Assembly: GCA_964016885.1 (NCBI GenBank)
Contig: OZ024742.1
Coordinates: 9,920,001 to 9,984,000, forward strand
Length of the DNA stretch: 64,000 nt
Direction of reading: 5' to 3'
Origin: Eledone cirrhosa
Taxonomy: Eukaryota
The notes beneath the pieces are model-generated. The model had not been told where the DNA came from, made no database searches, and saw only the letters and a list, made by a program, of their open reading frames with translations. Of the stretch, positions 9,001-61,154 are shown piece by piece. The stretch's first letter is position 1, and the number at the start of each line of letters is the position of its first letter. A program made the position numbers and the translations under genes.

Positions 9001-12000
9001 CGTGTACATCAATAGACTGGAGTTAGACTAGTACATCAATAGAGTGGAGTTAGACTAGTACATCAATAGACTGGAGTTAGACTAGTACATCAATAGAGTG
9101 GAGTTAGACTAGTACATCAATAGACCGGAGTTAGACAAGTACATCGGTAGATTGGATTTAGACGAGTACATCAATAGACTGTAGTTAGACTAGTACATCA
9201 ATAGATTGGGTTAGACTAGTACATCAATAGACTGGAGTTAGACTAGTACATCAATATTCTGGGGTTAGACTAGTACATCAATAGACTTCATTTAGACTAA
9301 TACATCATTAGACTGAGATTAGACTAGTACATCAATAGACTGGAGTTAGACTAGTACATCAATAGAGTGGAGTTAGACTAGTACATCAATAGACCGGAGT
9401 TAGACAAGTACATCGGTAGATTGGATTTAGACGAGTACATCAATAGACTGTAGTTAGACTAGTACATCAATAGATTGGGTTAGACTAGTACATCAATATA
9501 CCGGAGTTAGACTAGTACATCAATATTCTGGGGTTAGACTAGTACATCAATAGACTTCATTTAGACTAATACATCATTAGACTGAGATTAGACTAGTACA
9601 TCAATAGACTGGAGTTAGACTAGGACATCAATAGACTGGGGTTAGACTAGTACATCAATAGAGTAGGGTTAGACTAGTACATCAATAGACTGGAGTTAAA
9701 CTAATACATCAATAGACCGGAGTTAGACTAGTACATCGATAGACTGGATTTAGACGAGTACATCAATAGACTGTAGTTAGACTAGTACATCAATAGATTA
9801 GGTTAGACTAGTACATCAATAGAATGGATTTAGACTACTACATCAATATACTGGAGTTAGACTAGTACATCAATAGACTGGAGTTAAACTAGTACATCAA
9901 TAGACCGGAGTTAGACTAGTACATCAATAGACTGGAGTTAGACTAGTACATCGATAGACTGGATTTAGACGAGTACATCAATAGACTGTAGTTAGACTAG
10001 TACATCAATAGATTGGGTTAGACTAGTACATCAATAGACTGGAGTTAGACTACTACATCAATATACTGGAGTTAGACTAGTACATCAATATTCTGGGGTT
10101 AGACTAGTACATCAATAGACTGGAGTTAGACTAGTACATAAATAGACTGGAGTTAGACTAGTACATCAATAGACTAGGGTTAGACTAGTACATCGATAGA
10201 CTGGAGTTAGACTAGTACATCAATAACTAGGGTTAGACAAGTACATCAATAGACTGGGGTTAGACTAGTACATCAATAGACTGGGGTTAGACTAGTACAT
10301 CAGTAGACTGGAGTTAGACTAGTACATCAATAGACTGGGGTTAGACTAGTACATTAATAGACTGTAGTTAGACTAGTACATCAATAGACTGGAGTTAGAC
10401 TACTACATCAATATACTGGAGTTAGACGTGTACATCAATAGACTGGGGTTAGACTAGTACATCAATAGACTGGAGTTAGACTAGTACATCAATATACCGG
10501 AGTTAGACTATTACATCAATAGACTGGGGTCACACTAGTACATCAATAGACTGGGGTTAGACTAGTACATTAATAGAATGTAGTTAGACTAGTACATCAA
10601 TAGATTGGGTTAGACTAGTACATCAATAGACTGGAGTTAGACTACTACATCAATATACTGGAGTTAGACTTGTACATCAATAGACTGGGGTTAGACTAGT
10701 ACATCAATAGACTGGAGTTAGACTAGTACATCAATAGACTGGAGTTAGACTAGTACATCAATAGACCGGAGTTAGTCTAGTACATCGGTAGACTGGATTT
10801 AGACGAGTACATCAATAGACTGTAGTTAGTCTAGTACATCAATAGATTGGGTTAGACTAGTACATCAATAGACTGGAGTTAGACTACTACATCAATAGAC
10901 TGGAGTTAGACTAGTACATCAATATTCTGGGGTTAGACTAGTACATCAATTGACTGGAGTTAGACTAGTACATAAATAGACTGGAGTTAGACTAGTACAT
11001 CAATAGACTAGGGTTAGACTAGTACATCAATAGACTGGAGTTAGACTAGTACATCAATAACTAGGGTTAGACAAGTACATCAATAGACTGGGGTTAGACT
11101 AGTACATCAATAGACTGGGATTAGACTAGTACATCAGTAGACTGGAGTTAGACTAGTACATCAATAGACTGGTGTTAGACTATTACATCAATAGACTGGG
11201 GTCACACTAGTACATCAATAGACTGGGGTTAGACTAGTACATTAATAGACTGTAGTTAGACTAGTACATCAATAGATTGGGTTAGACTAGTACATCAATA
11301 GACTGGAGTTAGACTACTACATCAATATACTGGAGTTAGACGTGTACATCAATAGACTGGAGTTAGACTAGTACATCAATAGAGTGGAGTTAGACTAGTA
11401 CATCAATAGACTGGAGTTAGACTAGTACATCAATAGAGTGGAGTTAGACTAGTACATCAATAGACCGGAGTTAGACAAGTACATCGGTAGATTGGATTTA
11501 GACGAGTACATCAATAGACTGTAGTTAGACTAGTACATCAATAGATTGGGTTAGACTAGTACATCAATAGACTGGAGTTAGACTAGTACATCAATATTCT
11601 GGGGTTAGACTAGTACATCAATAGACTTCATTTAGACTAATACATCATTAGACTGAGATTAGACTAGTACATCAATAGACTGGAGTTAGACTAGTACATC
11701 AATAGAGTGGAGTTAGACTAGTACATCAATAGACCGGAGTTAGACAAGTACATCGGTAGATTGGATTTAGACGAGTACATCAATAGACTGTAGTTAGACT
11801 AGTACATCAATAGATTGGGTTAGACTAGTACATCAATATACCGGAGTTAGACTAGTACATCAATATTCTGGGGTTAGACTAGTACATCAATAGACTTCAT
11901 TTAGACTAATACATCATTAGACTGAGATTAGACTAGTACATCAATAGACTGGAGTTAGACTAGGACATCAATAGACTGGGGTTAGACTAGTACATCAATA

Positions 12001-13478
12001 GAGTAGGGTTAGACTAGTACATCAATAGACTGGAGTTAAACTAATACATCAATAGACCGGAGTTAGACTAGTACATCGATAGACTGGATTTAGACGAGTA
12101 CATCAATAGACTGTAGTTAGACTAGTACATCAATAGATTAGGTTAGACTAGTACATCAATAGAATGGATTTAGACTACTACATCAATATACTGGAGTTAG
12201 ACTAGTACATCAATAGACTGGAGTTAAACTAGTACATCAATAGACCGGAGTTAGACTAGTACATCAATAGACTGGAGTTAGACTAGTACATCGATAGACT
12301 GGATTTAGACGAGTACATCAATAGACTGTAGTTAGACTAGTACATCAATAGATTGGGTTAGACTAGTACATCAATAGACTGGAGTTAGACTACTACATCA
12401 ATATACTGGAGTTAGACTAGTACATCAATATTCTGGGGTTAGACTAGTACATCAATAGACTGGAGTTAGACTAGTACATAAATAGACTGGAGTTAGACTA
12501 GTACATCAATAGACTAGGGTTAGACTAGTACATCGATAGACTGGAGTTAGACTAGTACATCAATAACTAGGGTTAGACAAGTACATCAATAGACTGGGGT
12601 TAGACTAGTACATCAATAGACTGGGGTTAGACTAGTACATCAGTAGACTGGAGTTAGACTAGTACATCAATAGACTGGGGTTAGACTAGTACATTAATAG
12701 ACTGTAGTTAGACTAGTACATCAATAGACTGGAGTTAGACTACTACATCAATATACTGGAGTTAGACGTGTACATCAATAGACTGGGGTTAGACTAGTAC
12801 ATCAATAGACTGGAGTTAGACTAGTACATCAATATACCGGAGTTAGACTAGTACATCGGTAGACTGGATTTAGACGAGTACATCAATAGACTGTAGTTAG
12901 ACTAGTACATCAATAGATTGAGTTAGACTAGTACATCAATAGACTGGAGTTAGACTACTACATCAATATACTGGAGTTAGACTAGTACATCAATATTCTG
13001 GGGTTAGACTAGTACATCAATAGACTGGAGTTAGACTAGTACATAAATAGACTGGAGTTAGACTAGTACATCAATAGACTAGGGTTAGACTAGTACATCA
13101 ATAGACTGGAGTTAGACTAGTACATCAATAACTAGGGTTAGACAAGTACATCAATAGACTGGGGTTAGACTAGTACATCAATAGACTGGGGTTAGACTAG
13201 TACATCAGTAGACTGGGGTTAGACTAATACATCAATAGACTGGGGTTAGACTAGTACATCAGTAGACTGGGGTTAGTCTAGTACATAAATAGACTGGGGT
13301 CAGACGAATACATCAATAGTCTGGGGTTAGACTAGTACATCTATAGACTGGAGTTAGACTAGCACATCAGTAGACTGGGGTTAGACTAGTACATAAATAG
13401 ACTGGGGTCACACTAGTACATCAATAGACTGGGGTTACACTAGTACATCAATAGACTGGGGTTAGACTAGTACATCAA
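1..13478. repeat. Satellite array, 27-bp unit (consensus GACTAGTACATCAATAGACTGG[G/A]GTTA), about 500 copies, open at the window start
   Basis: Directly visible 27-bp periodicity (e.g. TGGAGTT at 241 and 268) with diverged variants. Ends at about 13478, followed by unique sequence and a (CT)n tract. Confidence 0.98.
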
Positions 13479-13576
13479 TGATACAATGTTTCCCAGCACT
13501 CCATGTTCTGATTATTAATATAATCCTACATATAGACGGTGCATAGACAGAACTGTTGGCCTGACGTATTCTACTG

Positions 13577-19943: not shown

Positions 19944-20268
19944 TAATATATTAATAAATGGAAACTATATTTATAAAACAAAAATTATTTTATTATATAT
20001 ATTTCATGGGCGACCAAGGTAAATTATGGTGCGCTTTCATCAGATAAAATACAGATTTGTTTTATAAATAAATCTTGACATACCCGGAAAAAAGACAACC
20101 TCAACCGTTGAGGTTGTCTTTTTTCCGGGTATGTCAAATTTATTTATAAAACAAATCTGTATATTATCTGATGAAAGCGCACCATAATTTACCTTGGTCG
20201 CCCTTGAAATATATACAATAAAATAATTATGGTTTTATAAATATAGTTTCCATTTATTAATATATTCT
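19944..20268. mobile_element. About 325-bp palindromic insertion with a hammerhead motif in each arm
   Basis: Arms at about 19944-20105 and 20107-20268 with a 1-nt spacer (CCTCAAC-C-GTTGAGG), in a TA-rich context. Confidence 0.85.
19986..20051 (-). ncRNA. Type I hammerhead ribozyme candidate (mirror copy at about 20160-20225, +)
   Basis: tattttat-CTGATGA-aagcgcacca..tggtcgcccat-GAAA-tatat-ATA-ataaaata. Stem I is a perfect 8 bp, stem III is palindromic, stem II is imperfect. Confidence 0.7.
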
Positions 20269-20346: not shown

Positions 20347-20417
20347 TATTTTATCTGATGAAAACACAAATGTTATTGCATGATGATATTTGTTTTTGAA
20401 ATGCGCATAATAAGATA
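20347..20417 (+). ncRNA. Type I hammerhead ribozyme candidate
   Basis: tattttat-CTGATGA-aaacacaaatgttatt..atgatatttgttttt-GAAA-tgcgc-ATA-ataagata. Stems I and II form, stem III is the palindrome ATGCGCAT, site is AUA. Second copy at 25025. Confidence 0.8.
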
Positions 20418-20503: not shown

Positions 20504-20642
20504 ATATATAATAAACGTGGACCATCACTTCGAAAATTTTGCAATATCTCAGTTAGGTTTCTGTAAATCCGAAATCAATAAAATCCGCTTGCATTGTAAG
20601 CAAGTTAAGTTTCTTATATATATATATATATATATATATATA

Positions 20643-20836
20643 CGTTATTCCGGGTTGAATCGGAGGTAACCACAGTAAGTAAGGTACTCAATACATAGCA
20701 GAGTATAATAGTTTTAATATAGAAGAGATTCTACAGGACTAGAACTGTTTCATTCATTAGAAATCATCAGGAATCTGATGATTTCTAATGAATGAAAACA
20801 GTTCTAGTCCTGTAGAATCTCTTCTATATTAAAAAC

Positions 20837-20838
<2 letters not shown>
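20643..20838. mobile_element. Fold-back pLTR fragment in (TA)n, inverted exactly at a hammerhead core
   Basis: Arms at about 20709-20770 and 20775-20838 around TCATCAG-gaat-CTGATGA. Minus strand reads CTGATGA-tttctaatgaat-GAAAC-agttcta-GTC. Confidence 0.75.
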
Positions 20839-20869
<31 letters not shown>

Positions 20870-20879
20870 TATATATATA

Positions 20880-21079
20880 NNNNNNNNNNNNNNNNNNNNN
20901 NNNNNNNNNNNNNNNNNNNNNNNNNNNNNNNNNNNNNNNNNNNNNNNNNNNNNNNNNNNNNNNNNNNNNNNNNNNNNNNNNNNNNNNNNNNNNNNNNNNN
21001 NNNNNNNNNNNNNNNNNNNNNNNNNNNNNNNNNNNNNNNNNNNNNNNNNNNNNNNNNNNNNNNNNNNNNNNNNNNNNNN
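20880..21079. other. Assembly gap (200 N)
   Basis: N run next to a (TA)n tract. Confidence 0.99.
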
Positions 21080-25024: not shown

Positions 25025-25093
25025 TATTTTATCTGATGAGAACGCAAGTATCATCCCATGATGATATTTGTTTTTGAAATGCGCATAATAAAT
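25025..25093 (+). ncRNA. Type I hammerhead ribozyme candidate (same family as 20347) within a TA-flanked insert at about 24955-25226
   Basis: tattttat-CTGATGA-gaacgcaagtatcat..atgatatttgttttt-GAAA-tgcgc-ATA-ataaa. Downstream sequence is shared with the 20347 copy. Confidence 0.8.
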
Positions 25094-36226: not shown

Positions 36227-36285
<59 letters not shown>

Positions 36286-36571
36286 CAAATAACGAAACGA
36301 AATTAAATTTCGTTTCGTTTGTAACTCACTTTTGTATGACTGACGCTTAAGCAATTAAGTTAAATGTACATCCACATATGTATACTGAAATACTAGTATG
36401 CATACGAATACACACACGTGTACATATGTAGATGTACCGAGTTTTTCACTGGTCACTTTACTGTGAGTGTCCAGCTATTCTGTATGTAAACACACAGACA
36501 AACCGGTTTTTAGAGTCATACTGGTTTTTGAGGAAACACCTTTCCTCTATTCTCCAGAAAGCCAGACAAGG

Positions 36572-36616
36572 AATATTGGACTAGTTTCGATGTTGTTACA
36601 TCTCATCAGCAATATT
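36572..36616 (-). ncRNA. Canonical minimal type I hammerhead ribozyme
   Basis: aatattg-CTGATGA-gatgt-aaca-acatc-GAAAC-ta-GTC-caatatt. Perfect 7-bp stem I, 5-bp stem II, palindromic stem III ACTAGT, GUC site. Confidence 0.88.
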
Positions 36617-36934
36617 TACCTATCTTCCGGCCTTTCTAGAGAATCGTAAAAGCACATATCGTTATATGCTTTTTCTATGAAATATATATATATATATAAG
36701 AAGTTAATATCGCCACAGGTACTAAGTACCCCTGGAAATATATAGGGTGTCTATGATACAATGGTTGTTCAATGGTATTACTTTGACATACCAGAACTAT
36801 AAAATTGAGGTAAGCGGAGCAAGTAAGATTCAAACAATTTTTTTAAATAAATTAAAAAATATAATTTAAATATTTACCTATTCCAATTGCTTTTACCGAA
36901 CGGTTTCACTTCAATATATATATATATATATATA

Positions 36935-38387
36935 CGGGATAACAAGTTATCGTTATAGGCAATCCACTTAGAGGTAGTCCAGTTAGAGTACTCCGTGTTG
37001 TGGATGGTATTAACGTATGGCTTAGTTTGTCTCAACAAGACGCTTCCATAGTGATGCAGCGAGTTCGCGGTTATTTCTATGTAGGTTATATTTGGAGTAA
37101 TAATAATTCAAGAAATAAGAGTAACATGTTGTCTGTACAATAAGGACTTTATTCACAGTGCTGACAATTGTTTCTTTGATCTGGTAGGTCTAGAGCTCGC
37201 TAATCGCTTGATGTTGCGTCAATCGATCTCCACTACTTTGTTATAACCAGTCAATTTATTAGAGCGTGCGGATGTGAGGAAAATACGCAAGGCATGGCTT
37301 TTATAGAGGAGTGGTATTAGACCAGAACAGTAATATCAATAACAAAATAACTAGATACTGAATAGTTAAAATAATAACATCAATATGAATAAGAAATAGA
37401 ATATAATGATAAAACTAGCATGGTAAACGAACTGATGATACAGATGTATGAAATTGACATGTGAGGACTACTATAGGGTATATTATATGTAGTATTTGAG
37501 GGATGAAGAGATAACTAATAAAATGTACTCAGATTAAAATTTTGGAATCTACACTTTAAGTGCAATTATGAGGGATCTAGATACAAGTGTGGTGTGGGTC
37601 TAAAAGCACACTAGCAATAAACCGGAGATTGATTTATAGTTTGACAGTATTTTCGTTGTATCAACTTAGTGAAATTGATAGAGTGAGTGTATAAAGATAT
37701 GTGGTTCTTAGGTGATATTAAGTGAAATTGTAGATTTTAAGGTTTAGGTGGCTTATTCTAAATGTTGGGACTGCTAGTTCGAATCATGGGGTTTAGTTTT
37801 CACAACATCAATAACAAATAGCGTATAATTAAGACAATAACATCAACAATAAAATATGCATAGTAAATAGATAGAGAACATGATGAATAAAATTAGGGAT
37901 AGGGTACATTGAGATGATCATAATAATAATAAGAAAATAAGAGTTTCAAGGGGTTTAAGAGTAATAACTTAGAATTAAGTTCATCTGTTAGAGATCATGG
38001 GTGCTAATATGAGATATGTAGATATAATTGTTTGGTTCGAAAGAATAAACAACAGCAAAGACGAGATTGATTTATGGGCTGACAAGATAATTGGTAAATC
38101 TTTGTAGACATTGCTGTCCTATCTTGGTGGTATAGATGTAGGGAGGCTGCAAGGTGTTTATTGAAGATTATGGTTGTGTGAGAATGCGGATTTCATACGT
38201 TAAATTCTAAGTGATTTTCCATTAATTTTGGGGATGCTGTTTCGAATCACGGTGGTTTAAATCCCGTAAATTTAGTAGCAATACTATGTCTACAGAAAAT
38301 TGACTTTTTTATTTTGCTGATATGTAGGAATTCAAGGTTGCAGAGCCCGCAATGGGACATACCGCTGCTATAGGTCTTTGCGGCCGC
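36935..38387 (-). mobile_element. 5'-truncated Penelope-like element (second family) inserted between (TA)n tracts
   Basis: 38387-38247 translates to AAAKTYSSGMSHCGLCNLEFLHISKIKKSIFCRHSIATKFTGFKPP*, matching the C-terminus of the 41549 ORF (CKLCNLE..LFCRH..F..YKP). It is followed by a long 3' UTR with a decayed hammerhead (CTAATAA..GAAACAATTGTC, about 37150-37265). Confidence 0.8.
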
Positions 38388-38624
38388 TATATATATATAT
38401 ATATTTTTCTCATCCGTCTATTTTTCACTCCCAACCTAGTACCTTCAATATGCCCAATCTCAAATCTTTTCTCCGTCAGCTCCATTCTACTCCCAAGCGC
38501 TTCCTCCATTCTCCCACCCCTATGTGCATCCAATCCCCCACAGTTTTGCAAGAGATGTCAACATGAATGGACCTGTTATTTTTTATCTAAAAACATTTTT
38601 TCCACTTCCAACCCACCCGTCCCC

Positions 38625-40783: not shown

Positions 40784-40842
<59 letters not shown>

Positions 40843-40847
<5 letters not shown>

Positions 40848-41384
40848 TGTGTATATATATGTAAGTATGAATATGTGAATTGTGAGTATATGTATTTTGT
40901 AGAGGTGTGCAAATATATTTGTGTGTGAATGCGTGGGTGAAAGGATACGTACACTTGAAAGAAAAATTTAAGTCTGAATGTTAATTAAGTGCAAACACAA
41001 AACCAACCACGCATATCTTTACTATCTCTAATCCTTCTATAGATTTAGAAAAATAACCAATAATATATTCTATAAAAAATGTCAAAACAACAGATGGGAA
41101 TCTAATTACTCACTGCCACCAAGAATTCTCACTGCTATCGAAAAACCACTCCTTCAAATATTCTTCTAACAACTTCACCCCTCCCTCCTAATATTCTCTA
41201 TAAAAACTAAATAGGTCCTCAGTAATATTATTCTGATGAAATGACAGTAAATAATAACATTGAAATATTGAATGTCTGCATAACTAAAAGTTTGTAGATA
41301 GCTGTTTTAGGTTATGTAACTGTTATAGAAACACGTGTCAATAAATTCCTTTCAACTAAACTGTATCCATTCAAATCTTTCTAT
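40843..41384 (+). repeat. 5' pseudo-LTR (542 bp)
   Basis: Matches 44428-44969 at offset 3585; one substitution noticed by eye (caaatattc vs caactattc). Confidence 0.95.
41228..41344 (+). ncRNA. Type I hammerhead ribozyme with extended branched stem II (5' pLTR)
   Basis: ttatt-CTGATGA-a-atgacagt...actgttat-a-GAAAC-acgt-GTC-aataa. Palindromic stem III ACACGTGT; predicted cleavage after C41339. Confidence 0.8.
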
Positions 41385-41548
41385 TTTTCTCCGGATTACT
41401 TTTGGAACTACAACTGGAACCGTCGAGCAAACTCTACGTGAGCTGATAATCTACTGTGTGTAATATTTATATTACAACACAACGGAAAATACTGTATATT
41501 TACCTCCTGTAAAGTCGAGCAACCCACACAGCAAACGCAACCACAACA

Positions 41549-43870
41549 ATGGAAAAACACTACCTGGATATGTCACTCAAAAACATACCAACCCAAGGTA
41601 GAAAGGAATATTTATTGAGCATGATTCAAAAAACTAATGAATTCATTCGACGTGTCAGGTGGAAAACGCTCCACTATGATAGAAGCCGTATGAACTCAAC
41701 ATTAGAAAGTGGTGTAAACAACAAATTCGGTTTTAGGACTTGTAAAAACCCACCCACCAACCCACTATTAGATGCATTTGAGCAGGACCTTATGAACTTA
41801 ATCCTTAAAATTAAATTCAAAGGACGCAACACCAACAGCAAATTACAGAAAGATATAAAAAAACTACTGGACGACCTTAAAAACACCAAAGGAATTGTAG
41901 TAAAAGCGGACAAAACATCAAACCTGTACACTATGGATTGCACTACATACAACAACTTCATTCGAAAAGAATTACATAAAAAATATAGAAAAACCAGTGA
42001 AGTAACCCTTAAGCACATCAATGATGAGGCATGCGAAATAGTGAAAAATCTCGGAATCGAAGATAGGACAGGACCACTCTTACCGGCGGTACCCACCTTC
42101 AATCTTAAGGACCACAAGGTAAACTTTGATAATGACCCTAAAATTAGATTAATCTGCCCCTCTAAATCAGATATAGGTAAAATAAGCAAATATATCTTAG
42201 ATAGAATCATCCCCCAAATTAAGGCTAAGGTTAACATTAAACTCTGGGGGAAGACCCAAGAAGCAATAAGATGGTTTAATAGCATTAGCAATAAGAATAA
42301 ATCTAAGTTTATCCAGTTTGATATCGATGAATATTACTCATCGATATCACCTGAAACTTTGAATAGAGCCATTAAGTTTGCTAAGGATAACTCTGACCTT
42401 ACAAACGATGAAATTAAGATTATATTAGAAGCTAGGAAAACTATAGTCAAATTTGAGAACAGTTATTGGGTACGTAAAGATAGACCCTCTAACTTTGACA
42501 TAACAATGGGCTCTAACGATTCGGCGGAAATAACTGATATTGTGGGGTTATTTATCGCCTTTAGACTCCAGGAAAAATTCAGCAATCTCCACGGCGGAAT
42601 ATACCGCGACGATGTTCTCCTCCTAGCTAAAAACCTTAATAACCAAAAACTAGAAAAACTACGCAAAGATATAAGAAAACTACTACTCGAAATAGGACTA
42701 ACTATAACATATGAATACAACCTTAAAGTAGTTAACTTCCTGGATGTCACACTCAATTTAAACTCTGGTTTGATTAAACCGTTTCATAAATTGAATGAAA
42801 ATCTCAAATACGTAAATGTTGGGTCTAACCACCCCATCTCTATAATTAAATCTATCCCTAAAAATATTTCCCTTAGAATCTCGGGTCTATCTTCTAACAT
42901 ACAAGTATTTAAGGAACACGCCGAGTACTACGATAACGCCCTTAGTAAAGCAGGCTACCTCAACAAAATAGAGTACATAGATGGGAACAATCAAAACACC
43001 CAAAATAAATCCCACATAGGTAGATATAATAACACAACACCAAACCACACTTACTACCATAGTATGCACACCAGTAAACCAACAAACAAAACTAATAGAA
43101 AGCGATGCAAAGAGTACTTATGGTATAACCCCGAATACAATAGCTCCATTAGTACAAATTTACCAGTAATCTTCTTTAAAATAATTAAAAGACATTTTCC
43201 CACATCACACAAATACCACAAAATCCTAAACCCTACCACTATAAGACTGTCATACTCTACAGCGTTAAACCTTGAACAACACATAAAAAAGATCAATACT
43301 AGAAGGTTAAACGAAAACACTAAGAACTTAAGTACAAAGAACACAAACAAATCAGTAGACAATACACTACAGAACATAAATAAACCAGACCTAAGTTCGT
43401 CCGCAATACTACTCCAGAGAAAACCCAACGTACACAACTGTAACTGCACCTATCCTGACAACTGCCCCCTCGGCAATAACTGCCTGGAAAAAAATATTAT
43501 TTATAAGTGTACCATTAAATCCGGAGGCAACGAGTGGTATTACGTGGGATCAACGGCAACATCGTTTAAATCTCGATTGTATAGGCATTCTTACTCAATA
43601 AAACACCAGAGCCAAAGAAATGTAACAACTTTAGCAGAAAAAGCTTGGACGCTCAGGGATAGCAATCAAAAGTTTACCCTAAAATGGGAAAAATTAGCTA
43701 AAACCCAAAGCTTTTCCAGGAGCCAAAATTTCTGCAAATTGTGTAATCTTGAGATTTATTACATAATCACACACAAGAAGAAACTGCTGAATAACAGAAT
43801 TGAACGAACATTATTCTGCCGTCACAGAACTAAAACCCTTTTTTCCCACTACAAGCCGAATATTACATAA
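41549..43870 (+). CDS. PLE polyprotein: reverse transcriptase plus C-terminal GIY-YIG endonuclease (773 aa)
   Basis: PLE-type motifs: VVKADKT, KDHK..PKIRLI, FIQFDIDEYYSSI, FDITMGS, IYRDD, VNFLDVTL, SNHP..IIKSI. Linker CNCTYPDNC. Endonuclease IIYKC..YYVGST..FKSR..H, KW, CKLCNLE, CRH. No stops or frameshifts. Confidence 0.95.
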   Translation: MEKHYLDMSLKNIPTQGRKEYLLSMIQKTNEFIRRVRWKTLHYDRSRMNSTLESGVNNKFGFRTCKNPPTNPLLDAFEQDLMNLILKIKFKGRNTNSKLQKDIKKLLDDLKNTKGIVVKADKTSNLYTMDCTTYNNFIRKELHKKYRKTSEVTLKHINDEACEIVKNLGIEDRTGPLLPAVPTFNLKDHKVNFDNDPKIRLICPSKSDIGKISKYILDRIIPQIKAKVNIKLWGKTQEAIRWFNSISNKNKSKFIQFDIDEYYSSISPETLNRAIKFAKDNSDLTNDEIKIILEARKTIVKFENSYWVRKDRPSNFDITMGSNDSAEITDIVGLFIAFRLQEKFSNLHGGIYRDDVLLLAKNLNNQKLEKLRKDIRKLLLEIGLTITYEYNLKVVNFLDVTLNLNSGLIKPFHKLNENLKYVNVGSNHPISIIKSIPKNISLRISGLSSNIQVFKEHAEYYDNALSKAGYLNKIEYIDGNNQNTQNKSHIGRYNNTTPNHTYYHSMHTSKPTNKTNRKRCKEYLWYNPEYNSSISTNLPVIFFKIIKRHFPTSHKYHKILNPTTIRLSYSTALNLEQHIKKINTRRLNENTKNLSTKNTNKSVDNTLQNINKPDLSSSAILLQRKPNVHNCNCTYPDNCPLGNNCLEKNIIYKCTIKSGGNEWYYVGSTATSFKSRLYRHSYSIKHQSQRNVTTLAEKAWTLRDSNQKFTLKWEKLAKTQSFSRSQNFCKLCNLEIYYIITHKKKLLNNRIERTLFCRHRTKTLFSHYKPNIT

Positions 43871-44139
43871 AAGAGGGACATCCCCCAACTATATAAACCT
43901 TAATCTAGTTAGAAAAATATAAAAACAATCTCTTCTCAACATATATTAATAACCTTAAATTACCATACTAATAATGAAAAGATATGCTGATGAGAATAGG
44001 TACAAATATGCGATAATGAATGTGTCTAAAAACGTCCATAAGTATGTATATATATGTGAAAATGTATATAAATAAGTAAATATATATATATGTTTGATGT
44101 GTATAGTTAGATGTAAGTGTATTCATGTATTAAAGTGCT

Positions 44140-44170
<31 letters not shown>

Positions 44171-44187
44171 ATATGTATATATGTGTA

Positions 44188-44256
<69 letters not shown>

Positions 44257-44427
44257 ATATGTGTATATGGATGTGTATGTATGTGTATGTGTGTACACAT
44301 GGACTAGAGTATGTATGTATATATGTGTGTGTCTATACGTGTGTATATAAAGATAAGTTGAGTACGAAAATGTATACACATGAGCGCGTATGTATGTACA
44401 TGAATACATGTGTGTATATATATGTGT

Positions 44428-44969
44428 ATGCATGTGTATATATATGTAAGTATGAATATGTGAATTGTGAGTATATGTATTTTGTAGAGGTGTGCAAATA
44501 TATTTGTGTGTGAATGCGTGGGTGAAAGGATACGTACACTTGAAAGAAAAATTTAAGTCTGAATGTTAATTAAGTGCAAACACAAAACCAACCACGCATA
44601 TCTTTACTATCTCTAATCCTTCTATAGATTTAGAAAAATAACCAATAATATATTCTATAAAAAATGTCAAAACAACAGATGGGAATCTAATTACTCACTG
44701 CCACCAAGAATTCTCACTGCTATCGAAAAACCACTCCTTCAACTATTCTTCTAACAACTTCACCCCTCCCTCCTAATATTCTCTATAAAAACTAAATAGG
44801 TCCTCAGTAATATTATTCTGATGAAATGACAGTAAATAATAACATTGAAATATTGAATGTCTGCATAACTAAAAGTTTGTAGATAGCTGTTTTAGGTTAT
44901 GTAACTGTTATAGAAACACGTGTCAATAAATTCCTTTCAACTAAACTGTATCCATTCAAATCTTTCTAT
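44428..44969 (+). repeat. 3' pseudo-LTR (542 bp)
   Basis: Direct repeat of 40843-41384; ends at TCTTTCTA/(TA)n. Confidence 0.95.
44813..44929 (+). ncRNA. Type I hammerhead ribozyme (3' pLTR copy)
   Basis: Identical to 41228-41344; predicted cleavage after 44924. Confidence 0.8.
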
Positions 44970-45607
44970 ATATATATATATATATATGCGTGTGTGTATG
45001 TGTATATATGCATATGTATGTGTATGTGTATGTGCGTATGTATGTGTATATGTATGTATCTATGCGTATGTATGTGTATATGTATATATATATACGTATG
45101 TATGTGTGTGTGTACGTATGTATGTGTGTGTATATATACGTATGTATGTATGTATGTATGTATGTACGCGTGTATGTATATACGTGTATGTATGTGTGTA
45201 TGTATATGTATATATACATGTATGTATGTATGTGTATATATATATATGCATGTATGTGTGTGTGTATGTGTATATATATATACATATGTATGTATGTGTG
45301 TATGTATGTATGCATGTGTGTGTATGTGTGTGTATATATGTATGCATATGTGTGTATGTATGTATGTGTGTGTGCATATGTATGTATGTATATATATGTA
45401 TATATATACATATGTATGTATATGTGTGTATATATATATATACATGTGTATGTGTGTATGTATGTATATATATACATATGTATGTATATATGTATGTGTA
45501 TGTATGTATATGTATGTGTGTATGTATGTATGTGTATGTATGTATGTATGTATGTATGTGTGTGTATGTATGTATATGTGTGTGTATGTATGTATGTGTA
45601 TGTATAT
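44970..45607. repeat. Complex (TA/TG/TATG)n microsatellite
   Basis: Directly visible; source of the YI/CV ORFs. Confidence 0.95.
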
Positions 45608-52449: not shown

Positions 52450-52492
<43 letters not shown>

Positions 52493-52497
<5 letters not shown>

Positions 52498-53185
52498 TAA
52501 AATAACAGATTAAAGTTTAAGGAAAGAATCGCTGCTTTCACCCTTAACGGGATCTTCTGAAACTAACAAAGTCAATCTGTAAACGCAGAACTGGATATTT
52601 CAAAAAACGTTGCAACCGGAGGAAGACAGGAAGACGATACTTTGGTTCGTGGAAACGTTCGCCTGTTTTCTGTATCAGGAGTTTTAGGTATGTTTTCCTG
52701 CTTGGTACGGGTATGTTCTTTGTAGAAATATTCAGATGTTGTTTCTGCATGATCAATATAAGTCAGTAGAGTGCTCAACCGAGGGAGCCAAATAGTAATA
52801 ATAATAAATTTGAAGACTAAAATCCAAAGAGGGCTCGATAAGGATAAATATATATCAAATATATAAGAACCGTAGAGCAAATATTTATTAAAATAACAGA
52901 TTAAAGTTTAAGCAAAGAATCGCTGCTTTCACCCTTAACGGGATTTTCTGAAACTAACAAAGTCAATCTGTAAACGCAGAACTGGATATTTCAAAAAACG
53001 TTGCAACCGGAGGAAGACAGGAAGACGAGAAGATCCCGTTAAGGGTGAAAGCAGCGATTCTTTGCTTAAACTTTAATCTGTTATTTTAATAAATATTTGC
53101 TCTACGGTTCTTATATATTTGATATATATTTATCCTTATCGAGCCCTCTTTGGATTTTAGTCTTCAAATTTATTATTATTACTAT
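52493..53185 (-). mobile_element. Internally deleted mini-PLE (391-bp period) with tandem and inverted pLTRs, in (TA)n
   Basis: 52493-52637 repeats at +391. 52750-52658 encodes MQKQHLNISTKNIPVPSRKTYLKLLIQKTGE, homologous to the PLE N-terminus MEKHYLDMSLKNIPTQGRKEYLLSMIQKTNE. 53028-53185 is an inverted pLTR. Confidence 0.85.
52514..52564 (-). ncRNA. Variant hammerhead-like motif (CAGAAGA core, CUU site); copies at 52905-52955(-), 51986-52036(-) and 53028-53072(+, partial)
   Basis: Family consensus agttt-CAGAAGA-tccc-gttaa-gggt-GAA-agca-gcgattctt-tgct-T-aaact. Three stems in hammerhead topology with a non-canonical core. Confidence 0.55.
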
Positions 53186-53187
53186 TA

Positions 53188-53260
<73 letters not shown>

Positions 53261-53757: not shown

Positions 53758-54064
53758 TTTATTATCATTAATATAAAAATGAATAATTATATTTTTGTAG
53801 AGAAGGGCATGAAATGTTATATAGCTTAGGGCTTCAGCCTGTGATAGTCCGACCCTGTATCAGACCATAACTTCCGATTGAACCGTAATTGCAAGTCACG
53901 TGTCTTGGGCATGTTAAACCTGTTAGGACACATTTCGTCTCCAGATCTGGACATGACAGCTTTCAACCCTAGAAGGAGAGAAATTGAGTGACAGAGAGGA
54001 GGAAGTGAGAAAGAGATCAGTTAAGGGGGTGGGGTACTACATGTAATGTCCTTTAGTGTCTTTC

Positions 54065-57000
54065 TTGTCACAAATGTCACCATAGCCGCCATAGGGTGAA
54101 CAACCTTGTCACAAATGTCACCATAGCCGCCATAGGGTGAACAACCTTGTCACAAATCCCACCATAGCCACCATAGGGTGAACAACCTTGTCACAAATGT
54201 CACCATAGCCGCCATAGGGTGAACAACCTTGTCACAAATCCCACCATAGCCGCCATAGGGTGAACAACCTTGTCACAAATGCCACCATAGCCACCATAAG
54301 GTGAACAACCTTGTCACAAATGTCACCATAGCCGCCATAAGGTGAACAACCTTGTCACAAATGTCACCATAGCCGCCATAAGGTGAACAACCTTGTCACA
54401 AATCCCACCATAGCCGCCATAGGGTGAACAACCTTGTCACAAATCCCACCATAGCCACCATAGGGTGAACAACCTTGTCACAAATGTCACCATAGCCGCC
54501 ATAGGGTGAACAACCTTGTCACAAATCCCACCATAGCCGCCATAGGGTGAACAACCTTGTCACAAATGTCACCATAGCCGCCATAAGGTGAACAACCTTG
54601 TCACAAATGTCACCATAGCCGCCATAAGGTGAACAACCTTGTCACAAATGTCACCATAGCCGCCATAAGGTGAACAACCTTGTCACAAATGTCACAATAG
54701 CCACCATAAGGTGAACAACCTTGTCACAAATGTCACCATAGCCGCCATAAGGTGAACAACCTTGTCACAAATCCCACCATAGCCGCCATAAGGTGAACAA
54801 CCTTGTCACAAATGTCACCATAGCCGCCATAAGGTGAACAACCTTGTCACAAATCCCACCATAGCCGCCATAAGGTGAACAACCTTGTCACAAATGTCAC
54901 CATAGCCGCCATAAGGTGAACAACCTTGTCACAAATGTCACCATAGCCACCATAAGGTGAACAACCTTGTCACAAATGTCACCATAGCCACCATAAGGTG
55001 AACAACCTTGTCACAAATGCCACCATAGCCGCCATAAGGTGAACAACCTTGTCACAAATGCCACCATAGCCGCCATAAGGTGAACAACCTTGTCACAAAT
55101 GTCACCATAGCCGCCATAAGGTGAACAACCTTGTCACAAATGTCACCATAGCCACCATAAGGTGAACAACCTTGTCACAAATGTCACCATAGCCACCATA
55201 AGGTGAACAACCTTGTCACAAATGTCACCATAGCCGCCATAGGGTGAACAGCCTTGTCACAAATCCCACCATAGCCACCATAGGGTGAACAACCTTGTCA
55301 CAAATGCCACCATAGCCGCCATAGGGTGAACAGCCTTGTCACAAATGTCACCATAGCCGCCATAGGGTGAACAACCTTGTCACAAATGCCACCATAGCCA
55401 CCATAAGGTGAACAACCTTGTCACAAATGTCACCATAGCCACCATAAGGTGAACAACCTTGTCACAAATCCCACCATAGCCGCCATAAGGTGAACAACCT
55501 TGTCACAAATCCCACCATAGCCGCCATAGGGTGAACAGCCTTGTCACAAATCCCACCATAGCCGCCATAAGGTGAACAACCTTGTCACAAATCCCACCAT
55601 AGCCGCCATAGGGTGAACAACCTTGTCACAAATGTCACCATAGCCACCATAAGGTGAACAACCTTGTCACAAATGTCACCATAGCCGCCATAGGGTGAAC
55701 AACCTTGTCACAAATCCCACCATAGCCGCCATAAGGTGAACAACCTTGTCACAAATCCCACCATAGCCGCCATAAGGTGAACAACCTTGTCACAAATCCC
55801 ACCATAGCCGCCATAAGGTGAACAACCTTGTCACAAATGTCACCATAGCCACCATAAGGTGAACAACCTTGTCACAAATCCCACCATAGCCGCCATAAGG
55901 TGAACAACCTTGTCACAAATGTCACCATAGCCACCATAAGGTGAACAACCTTGTCACAAATCCCACCATAGCCGCCATAAGGTGAACAACCTTGTCACAA
56001 ATCCCACCATAGCCGCCATAAGGTGAACAACCTTGTCACAAATGTCACCATAGCCACCATAAGGTGAACAACCTTGTCACAAATCCCACCATAGCCGCCA
56101 TAAGGTGAACAACCTTGTCACAAATGTCACCATAGCCACCATAAGGTGAACAACCTTGTCACAAATCCCACCATAGCCGCCATAAGGTGAACAACCTTGT
56201 CACAAATCCCACCATAGCCGCCATAAGGTGAACAACCTTGTCACAAATGTCACCATAGCCACCATAAGGTGAACAACCTTGTCACAAATCCCACCATAGC
56301 GGCCATAAGGTGAACAACCTTGTCACAAATCCCACCATAGCCGCCATAGGGTGAACAACCTTGTCACAAATCCCACCATAGCCGCCATTGGGTGAACAAC
56401 CTTGTCACAAATGTCACCATAGCCGCCATAGGGTGAACAACCTTGTCACAAATCCCACCATAGCCGCCATAGGGTGAACAGCCTTGTCACAAATCCCACC
56501 ATAGCCGCCATAGGGTGAACAACCTTGTCACAAATCCCACCATAGCCGCCATAGGGTGAACAACCTTGTCACAAATGTCACCATAGCCGCCATAGGGTGA
56601 ACAACCTTGTCACAAATCCCACCATAGCCGCCATAGGGTGAACAGCCTTGTCACAAATCCCACCATAGCCGCCATAAGGTGAACAGCCTTGTCACAAATG
56701 TCACAATAGCCGCCATAAGGTGAACAACCTTGTCACAAATGTCACCATAGCCGCCATAGGGTGAACAGCCTTGTCACAAATGTCACCATAGCCGCCATAA
56801 GGTGAACAACCTTGTCACAAATCCCACCATAGCCACCATAGGGTGAACAACCTTGTCACAAATGTCACCATAGCCGCCATAAGGTGAACAACCTTGTCAC
56901 AAATCCCACCATAGCCACCATAGGGTGAACAACCTTGTCACAAATGTCACCATAGCCACCATAAGGTGAACAACCTTGTCACAAATCCCACCATAGCCAC

Positions 57001-60000
57001 CATAGGGTGAACAACCTTGTCACAAATGTCACAATAGCCGCCATAGGGTGAACAGCCTTGTCACAAATGTCACCATAGCCGCCATAGGGTGAACAACCTT
57101 GTCACAAATGTCACCATAGCCGCCATAAGGTGAACAACCTTGTCACAAATGTCACCATAGCCGCCATAAGGTGAACAACCTTGTCACAAATCCCACCATA
57201 GCCACCATAGGGTGAACAACCTTGTCACAAATGTCACCATAGCCGCCATAGGGTGAACAACCTTGTCACAAATGTCACCATAGCCGCCATAAGGTGAACA
57301 ACCTTGTCACAAATCCCACCATAGCCGCCATAGGGTGAACAACCTTGTCACAAATGTCACCATAGCCGCCATAGGGTGAACAACCTTGTCACAAATCCCA
57401 CCATAGCCACCATAGGGTGAACAACCTTGTCACAAATGTCACCATAGCCGCCATAGGGTGAACAACCTTGTCACAAATCCCACCATAGCCACCATAGGGT
57501 GAACAACCTTGTCACAAATGTCACAATAGCCGCCATAGGGTGAACAACCTTGTCACAAATCCCACCATAGCCGCCATAAGGTGAACAACCTTGTCACAAA
57601 TGTCACAATAGCCACCATAGGGTGAACAACCTTGTCACAAATGTCACAATAGCCGCCATAGGGTGAACAACCTTGTCACAAATCCCACCATAGCCACCAT
57701 AGGGTGAACAACCTTGTCACAAATCCCACCATAGCCGCCATAGGGTGAACAACCTTGTCACAAATCCCACCATAGCCACCATAGGGTGAACAACCTTGTC
57801 ACAAATCCCACCATAGCCACCATAAGGTGAACAACCTTGTCACAAATGACACCATAGCCGCCATAGGGTGAACAGCCTTGTCACAAATCCCACCATAGCC
57901 ACCATAAGGTGAACAACCTTGTCACAAATGTCACCATAGCCGCCATAGGGTGAACAGCCTTGTCACAAATCCCACCATAGCCACCATAAGGTGAACAACC
58001 TTGTCACAAATGTCACCATAGCCGCCATAGGGTGAACAACCTTGTCACAAATCCCACCATAGCCGTCATAAGGTGAACAACCTTGTCACAAATCCCACCA
58101 TAGCCGCCATAAGGTGAACAACCTTGTCACAAATCCCACCATAGCCACCATAGGGTGAACAACCTTGTCACAAATGTCACCATAGCCACCATAGGGTGAA
58201 CAACCTTGTCACAAATCCCACCATAGCCACCATAGGGTGAACAACCTTGTCACAAATGTCACCATAGCCGCCATAGGGTGAACAGCCTTGTCACAAATGT
58301 CACAATAGCCGCCATAAGGTGAACAACCTTGTCACAAATGTCACCATAGCCGCCATAGGGTGAACAGCCTTGTCACAAATCCCACCATAGCCACCATAAG
58401 GTGAACAACCTTGTCACAAATGTCACCATAGCCGCCATAGGGTGAACAGCCTTGTCACAAATCCCACCATAGCCACCATAAGGTGAACAACCTTGTCACA
58501 AATGTCACCATAGCCGCCATAGGGTGAACAACCTTGTCACAAATCCCACCATAGCCACCATAGGGTGAACAACCTTGTCACAAATGTCACCATAGCCGCC
58601 ATAGGGTGAACAGCCTTGTCACAAATGTCACAATAGCCGCCATAGGGTGAACAACCTTGTCACAAATGTCACAATAGCCGCCATAGGGTGAACAGCCTTG
58701 TCACAAATGTCACAATAGCCGCCATAGGGTGAACAGCCTTGTCACAAATCCCACCATAGCCGCCACATGGGGAACAGCCTTGTCACAAATCCCACCATAG
58801 CCGCCATAAGGTGAACAACCTTGTCACAAATGTCACCATAGCCGCCATAAGGTGAACAACCTTGTCACAAATGTCACAATAGCCGCCATAGGGTGAACAG
58901 CCTTGTCACAAATGTCACCATAGCCGCCATAGGGTGAACAGCCTTGTCACAAATCCCACCATAGCCACCATAAGGTGAACAACCTTGTCACAAATCCCAC
59001 CATAGCCGCCATAAGGTGAACAACCTTGTCACAAATGTCACCATAGCCGCCATAGGGTGAACAGCCTTGTCACAAATGTCACCATAGCCGCCATAGGGTG
59101 AACAGCCTTGTCACAAATCCCACCATAGCCGCCATAAGGTGAACAACCTTGTCACAAATCCCACCATAGCCGCCATAGGGTGAACAACCTTGTCACAAAT
59201 CCCACCATAGCCGCCATAGGGTGAACAGCCTTGTCACAAATCCCACCATAGCCGCCATAGGGTGAACAACCTTGTCACAAATCCCACCATAGCCGCCATA
59301 AGGTGAACAACCTTGTCACAAATCCCACCATAGCCGCCATAGGGTGAACAGCCTTGTCACAAATCCCACCATAGCCGCCATAGGGTGAACAACCTTGTCA
59401 CAAATCCCACCATAGCCGCCATAGGGTGAACAGCCTTGTCACAAATGCCACCATAGCCGCCATAAGGTGAACAACCTTGTCACAAATCCCACCATAGCCG
59501 CCATAAGGTGAACAACCTTGTCACAAATCCCACCATAGCCGCCATAGGGTGAACAGCCTTGTCACAAATCCCACCATAGCCGCCATAGGGTGAACAACCT
59601 TGTCACAAATCCCACCATAGCCGCCATAAGGTGAACAACCTTGTCACAAATCCCACCATAGCCGCCATAGGGTGAACAGCCTTGTCACAAATCCCACCAT
59701 AGCCGCCATAGGGTGAACAACCTTGTCACAAATCCCACCATAGCCGCCATAGGGTGAACAGCCTTGTCACAAATCCCACCATAGCCGCCATAGGGTGAAC
59801 AACCTTGTCACAAATCCCACCATAGCCGCCATAAGGTGAACAACCTTGTCACAAATCCCACCATAGCCGCCATAGGGTGAACAACCTTGTCACAAATCCC
59901 ACCATAGCCGCCATAGGGTGAACAACCTTGTCACAAATCCCACCATAGCCGCCATAAGGTGAACAACCTTGTCACAAATGTCACAATAGCCGCCATAGGG

Positions 60001-60233
60001 TGAACAGCCTTGTCACAAATCCCACCATAGCCGCCATAGGGTGAACAGCCTTGTCACAAATCTCACCATAGCCGCCATAGGGTGAACAACCTTGTCACAA
60101 ATCCCACCATAGCCACCATAGGGTGAACAACCTTGTCACAAATGTCACAATAGCCGCCATAGGGTGAACAGCCTTGTCACAAATCCCACCATAGCCGCCA
60201 TAGGGTGAACAGCCTTGTCACAAATCTCACCAT
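54065..60233. repeat. Minisatellite array, 41-bp unit (CCTTGTCACAAAT[GT/CC]CACCATAGCC[G/A]CCATA[G/A]GGTGAACA[A/G]), about 150 copies
   Basis: Strict 41-bp periodicity (TTGTCAC at 54065, 54106, ...), with variation confined to a few dimorphic sites. Confidence 0.98.
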
Positions 60234-61154
60234 AACGTCCTAATAATGTACTTTCTTTTTTCAAATATCGCTATAGACTCTTTACGGGGAACACCCTTAT
60301 CACAAATGTCACCATAGCCCACTTAAGCGATAGAACTGAGCAATTACTCGGCTTAACATCAACAGCTGAGGTCACTCCGTTGAAAACATTCGGTTCCGTT
60401 CTCTTCCATATTTAAAATACTTTCCTAAAAATGGAGACCCAGCAGAGATATGGGAGCTGTCCGTCTTTCCTGACTACACCATAAATAAAACATAGTTGAG
60501 GTAAACGCGGTAATTATTTGATTTTATTTCAGTTGTGCACATTTCCGGAGTAGATTATCAACAGAACTAGATGTAATTAAACTACTTCAACTATGTTACG
60601 AGAAAACATTCTCGAATGGCGTTACGTACAATTGAAAAAGATACTCTCTTAAAAAGTCTATTCAAAAGTTTCACTTTAAATATTATTAAAAATTATTATT
60701 TATGGCAGCGGATTATGAAATTGTGAAATTGTGCCTTACATATTATTCCTAATTTTAATTGAAAGGAGATGTGCTTCAATGGAAAACAAACCTGGCTTGC
60801 TGATTTAACTCCATAGTTTAGTGTTGGTTAATTAAATGTAAAAACCTGCATAATACTGGTAATTACTTCATTAAAGAACATGTTCAACTGAAGCAGAAGG
60901 TGTAAGATAAGGACGGAAGTTTCTTTGTCGAAATTTGGTAAAAGGCAAAAAAAAAAAAAAAAAAAAATTGAGAAAAAGAAGAATTAAACATAATACAATG
61001 TAACCCAATGGAAAATGTAAGAAAAAACACGATCGTTGTATTAATTTTTATAGAATTAGTTTATTAAATCAACCCACGTACAAGACTGGTACTTATTTTA
61101 TCGAACTGGTACTTATTTTATCTCCAAATGGACAGTTGCAATACCAGAAGGTCT

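Follow-up and report, generated by a model that had tools for sequence, protein, structure and literature searches.

A Penelope-like element (PLE) of the Hydra clade was identified at positions 40842-44969 of a 64,000-nucleotide (nt) stretch of Eledone cirrhosa DNA (contig OZ024742.1; hereafter the window, whose numbering is used throughout). On balance, the element was probably inserted recently into a (TA)n tract by target-primed reverse transcription of an uncut RNA of more than unit length, and its hammerhead ribozyme has an 88-nt stem II that possibly contains a retained 64-nt intron. As judged from its sequence, it is a new family within a known clade, distinct from Hydra-1_Obim, because its protein carries the published Hydra motifs. 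Its departure from relatives appears to lie in the ribozyme with the oversized stem II, the remaining layout being ordinary. The Hydra clade, the arrangement of terminal repeats and tail, and both template models weighed below are already known; new here are two 3' ends of the family, 45 and 160 nt past the predicted ribozyme cut (+45 and +160).

Overall organization of the element

Self-comparison of the window yields two direct repeats, at 40842-41384 and 44427-44969, which are 543 bp long each, are offset by 3585 nt and differ at a single position (41158/44743). The 5' pseudo-long terminal repeat (pLTR; 40842-41384, +) is by repeat comparison a 5'-truncated second copy of the 3' end of the element. 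It carries a private A at 41158, where C is found in all three public sequencing runs that span the site. The 5' untranslated region (UTR) downstream of the predicted cut (41340-41548, +) comprises 209 nt, has no upstream ATG and includes the two family 3' end sites, 41384 (+45) and 41499 (+160). It is followed by an open reading frame (ORF; 41549-43870, +) of 773 residues (aa) with a reverse transcriptase (RT) that is telomerase-like, a thumb, a CxCx5C linker and, at the C terminus, an endonuclease of the GIY-YIG type that lacks the CCHH motif. The 3' UTR (43871-44969, +; 1099 nt) contains an internal TA/TG low-complexity stretch at about 44040-44450 and, at its end, the 3' pLTR (44427-44969, +), the last 45 nt of which (44925-44969, +) form a tail past the predicted cut whose last letters are TAT. 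The DNA copy thus extends 45 nt beyond the 3' cut site and begins 498 nt upstream of the 5' one, a geometry of pLTRs and tail that, on sequence grounds, is the standard PLE layout.

The left (TA)n target tract (40802-40844), preceded by (CT)n, overlaps the first bases of the element by microhomology, and the right one (44967-44987) is followed by a TG/TA microsatellite; no target-site duplication can be read. At the 5' end, TG/TA-rich sequence of the element agrees with the target at all but two of about a dozen bases, which would fit, as expected, a truncation joined by microhomology. An uninterrupted 773-aa ORF, TA tracts on both flanks, pLTRs with about one difference in 542 bp and ribozyme GUC triplets at 41339 and 44924, 3585 nt apart, had all been reported by a first-pass annotation of the window. 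These features were recovered, with hammerhead cores accompanying GTC at both sites; the start differs by one base (40843 in that annotation), a base that lies within the TA microhomology. The cut was also considered as the mark of a leader free of AUG, but this was discarded: 2.6 upstream ATGs would be expected here against the zero found, and the relatives contain 26 in 2289 nt (16 loci scored of the 21 given), so that there is no clade rule.

The protein belongs to the Hydra clade

The Hydra clade is defined in section 11 of Craig et al. 2021 (PMC8557442) by the motifs RWK and DKT, a CxCx5C linker, loss of CCHH, and CxxC and CxH motifs around a conserved E/N. Further traits given there are the lack of the insertion-in-fingers domain, targeting of (TA)n, a hammerhead and a generally short length, below 3 kb. 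Like the described members of the clade (Hydra-1_Amil, Hydra-1_Obim), the present element has a single ORF with the RT followed by a C-terminal GIY-YIG-type endonuclease, a (TA)n target and a predicted type I hammerhead with a tail, the 88-nt spacer and flanking As of which are, however, non-canonical. Its protein contains RWK (aa 37), DKT (aa 121), YRDD (aa 352), CxCx5C (aa 631-639), W..CxxC (aa 713-732) and CRH (aa 757), the CxxC at 729-732 and the CxH at 757-759 being placed around E735 and N748. No CxxC of a CCHH motif was seen between the GIY and YIG strands when these were read by eye against the text of Fig. S7 of PMC8557442. The insertion-in-fingers domain and an N-terminal CxC are also absent, the alignment to the homologue P0112 being ungapped between motifs A and B. 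The RT residues (D258 and YRDD 352-355) and the endonuclease residues (Y652, Y665/G667, R676, H680, E735, N748) are all intact, and E735 and N748 are invariant in eight aligned sequences. GxKF/Y is not conserved, the corresponding stretch being FGFRT. Among the top 120 homologues, RWK is found in 110, DK[TS] in 120, YRDD in 117, CxCx5C in 106, CxxC in 104 and CxH in 93.

The full length of the protein aligns to P0112 with 33% identity (E 2e-130), and P0112 matches, by eye and with few differences, the Hydra-1_Amil text in the published supplement. Together with the motifs, this agrees with the membership in the Hydra clade proposed at first sight. Identity to Hydra-type proteins is 33-41%; the highest values found were 46% along 486 aa and 54% along a short fragment, and the exact 773-aa protein was not found in the searched protein collection. 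Identity with Hydra-1_Obim, a Hydra element published earlier from an octopus, was rejected, since that sequence differs by eye in the supplement text and its consensus has 2507 bp and no pLTR. In a tree of the query and its 120 homologues, all of them Hydra-like, the protein joins P0004, P0001 and a protein of Argonauta hians in one subclade with support 1.0. This Argonauta neighbour and the richness of the window in microsatellites would fit a cephalopod host. An AlphaFold model (pLDDT 81) contains two low-confidence inserts. The best structural match of its RT part is to telomerase RTs (Z 15.0, root mean squared deviation 8.6, 316 aligned residues). Whole-model fold searches were filled with RT matches, and the fold of the endonuclease modelled from the single sequence was poor (pLDDT 42). 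No Pfam family was assigned to the 773-aa protein, GIY-YIG being found in one of 17 aligned members, and there were no relatives among 210 pattern matches in viral contigs.

Unlike its Hydra relatives, the element has a 3585-nt unit, above the descriptive limit of 3 kb (ten related pairs span 2204-2759), a 1.1-kb 3' UTR, the two low-confidence protein inserts and the 88-nt stem II spacer; the protein, at 773 aa, compares with a median of 706. Hydra elements were also encountered at 12 loci (L077-L088) of prokaryote species-representative assemblies that are metagenome bins, where they are probably contaminating animal DNA.

A recent family under selection

Seven of the 22 public runs listed contain 67-87% of the sampled ORF words, and one public contig spanning 41541-44060 shows ten differences in 2520 nt. 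Across 40 of 108 variant rows, 28 ORF variants were counted, 16 synonymous and 12 nonsynonymous over 469 and 1850 sites, respectively, a ratio of about 0.19; five of the 12 nonsynonymous changes fall in the two low-confidence inserts. The family appears to be recent and under purifying selection because of these near-identical contigs, this ratio and the intact RT and endonuclease residues. The single mismatch in 543 bp of pLTR and the closeness of the public contig also bear out the young age first suggested for the insertion: the element is intact and likely to have been inserted recently and, with all catalytic residues present, it is potentially active. In run X6, contig depth rises along the ORF (405, 602, 675, 1044) to about 1670 in the pLTR, a pattern like that of 5' truncation. 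Two considerations temper this picture, namely that contig depth is not copy number and that pLTR identity makes a weak clock within a family of near-identical copies.

Two 3' ends of the family

The public contigs considered here are the listed part of a set with 401 further loose ends and 2180 further pieces. In run X6, contigs start at 41355 and at 41470; 41385 and 41500 lie exactly 30 nt further on, so that forks are placed at 41384/5 and 41499/500. A contig of run X1 continues to 41499 and then enters AT repeats, and one of run X8 departs from the element sequence at 41384. The family has two 3' ends, at +45 and +160. Another X6 contig bridges the junction between the tail and the 5' UTR, which is therefore not private to this locus. 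Low-depth joints were also seen in X6 (41384 to 41359, 41388 to 41357). They go back about 26-32 nt with few extra letters, making small duplications of the tail end that could be marks of re-priming or of template jumps.

A tail of 45 nt is not unusual, although it was considered as such, for it falls inside the published Hydra range. Computed from positions in the supplement of PMC8557442, and setting aside the antisense row and one 5' copy, tails measure 30-153 nt in 23 of 24 rows and 30-48 nt in ten of them. An optional tail of 30-40 bp and partial tandems are given in PMC8557442 as general PLE traits. The tails of the relatives collected here cluster near 30-38, 45-59 and 92-117 nt. In the description of Poseidon by Frangieh et al. 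2024 (PMC11167929), the RT initiates internally in vitro at two sites that set the tail; insertion in vitro can dispense with ribozyme cleavage and takes place from unprocessed RNA, and no RNA ends are found at the cut site. A circular PLE template has been proposed in PMC4209133. The first-pass conclusion, which excludes a linear cleaved monomer as template, is logically right, but its novelty does not hold, a tail of this kind being a general PLE feature already explained in PMC11167929 and PMC4209133.

Both ends lie on TAT motifs, with alternating-TA suffixes of 3 nt at +45 and 5 nt at +160; seven such run ends occur in the 204 positions scanned. Of ten pLTR pairs of relatives, three terminate in a TA run, the suffixes measuring 2, 5 and 3 nt. 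The ends of the family modestly favour priming by pairing with a nicked (TA)n strand. A linear read-through RNA could account for the whole layout, the 3' flank supplying UA repeats at +45 and priming in the 5' junction giving solo pLTRs. Poseidon PAc of Anolis is similar in having two tail-setting start sites downstream of the ribozyme and a template that is likely uncleaved; its sites are adjacent, within the ORF and non-homologous to the target (PMC11167929), whereas the present sites, separated by 115 nt, are in the 5' UTR on TAT motifs.

A hammerhead with an oversized stem II

A type I hammerhead motif is found in each pLTR. In the 5' copy (41228-41344, +), stem I is formed by 41228-41232 and 41340-41344. 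The core (41233-41239) is followed by the 88-nt stem II spacer (41240-41327), by GAAA (41328-41331) and by the palindromic stem III (41331-41338), and the predicted cut is after C41339. The 3' copy (44813-44929, +) is identical, with its core from 44818 and its predicted cut after C44924, so that the core and the GUC (NUH) triplet in a three-way junction are present twice. To judge from the sequence, this arrangement is not due to chance, because core, rod, GAAA, palindrome and stem I complement stand in register, 209 nt before the ATG (112-219 nt in relatives). The 3' strand of stem I coincides with an AATAAA hexamer straight after the predicted cut (44925-44930, 41340-41345), possibly by chance in AT-rich sequence. 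A descriptor search gave 67 hits in 49 of 88 related loci, many of which are redundant. The spacer between the cores measures 10-31 nt in 66 of these hits, against 88 nt here, and the outlier, of 64 nt, is a doubtful match with a 3-bp stem. The 3' ribozyme is also distant from the end of the ORF, 951 nt as compared with 72-489 nt to the nearest 3' hit in relatives.

The spacer is predicted to fold into a 33-bp rod of -24.1 kcal/mol (z -4.5, two of 1000 shuffles, with boundaries picked post hoc; wider boundaries give z of only -1.9), whose basal pairs have probabilities of 0.81-1.0 in four contexts. Stem I comprises five A-U pairs with pairing probability of at most 0.08, and stem III is a loopless palindrome with a self-duplex of -10.3 kcal/mol. 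One extra A flanks stem II on each side of an A-U pair, and the base pattern of U-A followed by G-Y is kept if these are allowed. Read otherwise, A is opposite A at 10.1/11.1, a combination found in none of 61 distinct spacers of relatives, and the paired 10.1-11.1 closure of stem II is absent. This pair is reported in PMC3088659 as the second most conserved of the hammerhead, U-U being the mismatch that it tolerates best. At 41327, the second extra A shows no change in the covering contigs of X1, X6 and X8. In the relatives (L003-L086), 47 of the 61 spacers have U-A at 10.2-11.2; at 10.1-11.1, 25 have U.U and 23 have G-C, a signature of the clade. Cervera and de la Pena 2014 (PMC4209133) describe minimal and dimeric hammerheads in metazoan PLEs that share with the present motif a short stem I, a palindromic stem III and an extra base before stem II; the extra A before the second core sets the present motif apart from them.

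Rfam gave no hits at gathering score in the 64 kb and no hammerhead among 37 weak hits, and a covariance model built from 40 hammerheads of relatives, which did not span the 88-nt spacer, matched the first core only (E 0.3). The motif is probably a conserved, slow hammerhead of the dimer type. Excision of a 3585-nt RNA by its cleavage, as the first-pass annotation had it, is doubtful as stated because of the loopless palindromic stem III, the all-AU 5-bp stem I, the extra As and the 88-nt spacer, features that this annotation does not mention.

A candidate intron in stem II

Positions 41247-41310 (+), within the stem II spacer, are a candidate for either a 64-nt GT-AG spliceosomal intron or a hairpin insertion, and the corresponding segment is retained in the 3' pLTR (44832-44895, +). 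The segment starts with GT, has a pyrimidine tract, ends with TTTTAG and is directly followed by another GT. Its removal in silico leaves a 24-nt spacer with a 9-bp stem and a 4-nt loop, a size common in relatives, and the two other choices of AG give no such normal stem. PLEs are described as retaining 5'-UTR introns, that of Penelope being 75 bp long and located in the pLTR. The intron of Drosophila virilis Penelope ends at helix I, so that its spliced and unspliced RNAs differ in the ribozyme (PMC4209133); here, by comparison, the candidate lies inside stem II, the basal stem exists in both forms and the unspliced form is the 33-bp rod. A literature search that stopped short of subscription papers, the supplements of PMC4209133 and some bioRxiv supplements revealed no description of an intron within stem II of any PLE hammerhead. 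Strong donor-like GTRAGT words occur at 40861 and 40882, and also at 44113 in low-complexity sequence.

That the segment is a spliced, retained intron has, from these sequence features, an even chance of being correct. The opposing reading, a never-spliced hairpin that either expanded or was inserted as a small unit with a GT repeat of 2 nt, the ribozyme being tolerant of it or a slow vestige, seems to us about equally balanced between true and false; it concerns the ribozyme only and is compatible with linear and circular templates alike. The exact coincidence of the GT and TTTTAG ends with a deletion that restores the stem speaks for the intron: when the inner 70 nt were shuffled (n=50000), some deletion closed the stem in 11707 cases, with a YAG acceptor and pyrimidine tract in 79 and with any AG in 872. 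So do the length of 64 nt, close to that of the Penelope intron, and a TTTCAG acceptor variant in run X3, though the same change improves a pair of the rod. The stability of the rod argues for the hairpin, as do three changes in X6 that sit at unpaired or loop positions of its predicted fold. Several observations weigh against splicing. Closure by some deletion is common among the shuffles, a test that was designed after the sequence had been seen. The donor is weak (U1 duplex -1.9 kcal/mol, outside the best 12 of 42 GT sites, scored without a host-trained model), and there is no clear branch site in the segment, only degenerate branch-like words. The folding penalty is 6.9 kcal/mol for spliced and unspliced monomers alike. 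None of the 14 listed joints in DNA contigs skips 41247-41310, which is expected under retention and is neutral to weakly negative. Other hammerhead-like motifs of the window have spacers of 31-36 nt, so that stem II can lengthen without an intron, and loops of 35 nt are published for a spike-moss PLE. Both candidate splice sites are paired within the rod, and splicing would therefore be inefficient. A hammerhead gated by splicing, in which part of the transcripts would lose the intron and, with a compact ribozyme typical of the clade, cut themselves and define the translated RNA while the unspliced, long-rod RNA would stay uncut as the template for retrotransposition, is an unlikely extension of the intron reading.

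A model for insertion and its alternatives

In the model that we favour, transcription would start in or upstream of the 5' pLTR and read through the 3' pLTR into the flanking (TA)n, as the family suggests. The ribozyme, predicted to be a poor monomer on account of its loopless palindromic stem III, would have to act as a dimer or with the aid of protein to cut at all, leaving most of the template whole. The C-terminal endonuclease would nick a (TA)n tract, and the nicked end would prime at TAT/(TA)n 45 nt past the 3' ribozyme site, which sets the tail. The RT would then copy across both uncut sites, stop 498 nt upstream of the 5' site and be joined to the target by TA microhomology, producing the 5' pLTR, whereas priming at +45 or +160 in the 5' junction would give solo pLTRs. 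The long stem II may be a small spliceosomal intron, an evenly divided question, with splice sites buried in the rod and kept in the genome as PLE introns usually are.

Some points count against this model. Seven of the ten pLTR pairs of relatives have no clean TA-run end; the start sites of Poseidon, a member of another clade, are not homologous to its target (PMC11167929), in contrast to the TAT microhomology of the present element; and a circle re-ligated at the cut would yield a seamless pLTR-ORF-pLTR copy just as well. In such a rolling-circle route, the ribozymes would cut as a dimer, the 3585-nt monomer would be circularized, and the RT would prime 45 nt past the junction and run 543 nt into a second round to form the pLTR. 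This model is published for PLEs (PMC4209133), the copy shows no seam at the cut site, the palindromic stem III is well suited to cleavage as a dimer when one transcript contains two ribozymes, and on a circle both +45 and +160 would lie downstream of the ORF, the X1 pLTR contig reaching +160. We nevertheless consider it unlikely in view of the insertion of Poseidon in vitro without cleavage or RNA ends at the cut, of the poor cleavage reported for minimal metazoan hammerheads in PMC4209133, and of the A-U stem I and the extra As flanking stem II (A.A at 10.1/11.1) described above. A change at 41229 in one run, moreover, breaks a stem I pair, and the one pLTR mismatch is a further difficulty, though it may have arisen after insertion. 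The repeats could also be composite, made by separate RT events such as an RNA-to-RNA jump or the insertion of a truncated sibling into the 3' UTR, in which case pLTR identity would not date one insertion. A long TA tract in the 3' UTR (about 44190-44248), itself a target, and the low-depth duplications at the tail end in X6 would suit such an origin. It is made very improbable by the seamless 5' junction, bridged by a contig from another run, and by a low-depth X6 joint from 44039 to a pLTR position, which implies a sibling with colinear ORF end and pLTR. In addition, an element lacking the 3' pLTR would have no ribozyme, which all Hydra elements carry.

Among the literature examined, no biochemical test of any Hydra-clade element was found; this intact, young copy with two pLTRs is a ready substrate for endonuclease and priming assays. 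Its two family ends on TAT motifs offer a clean test of homology-primed against non-homologous internal initiation. If the stem II segment is spliced, the element would allow the reasons for intron retention in PLEs and the function of PLE ribozymes to be probed directly by experiment, and a splicing gate, if true, would link intron retention and ribozyme role in one testable 120-nt switch. If it is not spliced, the family is new but ordinary for Hydra, apart from an odd hairpin. Motifs with arms as long as these escape the standard descriptors of hammerheads.

Other repeats in the window

A truncated Hydra-type relic lies at 36270-38390 (-). The C-terminal 55 aa of an endonuclease (33% identity), beginning in a TA run, are followed by a stretch of 1.6 kb and, at 36609, by a hammerhead motif whose 14-nt spacer is normal; the relic may represent more than one insertion. 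At 52490-53190 (-), an inverted pLTR-like pair precedes codons 1-31 of another Hydra ORF (55% identity) together with one more repeat, and a hammerhead-like motif there has CAGA in place of CUGA in its first core. The motifs with 31-36-nt stem II spacers mentioned above belong to other families and are located at 20160-20244, 20347-20402 and 25025-25080 (+) and at 19986-20051 (-). In the two at 20347 and 25025, stem III is palindromic with U-A, not C-G, at 15.2/16.2, stem I is long and, by eye, the tail has about 40 nt and TAT as its last letters. A solo pLTR at 20640-20860, with a hammerhead at 20770 (-), an inverted partial copy, TA flanks and a tail of about 95 nt, adjoins an assembly gap (20880-21079). 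Two large satellites are located at 4-13479 (27-bp unit, 499 copies, 86% matches) and at 54064-60234 (41-bp unit, 150 copies, 94% matches).

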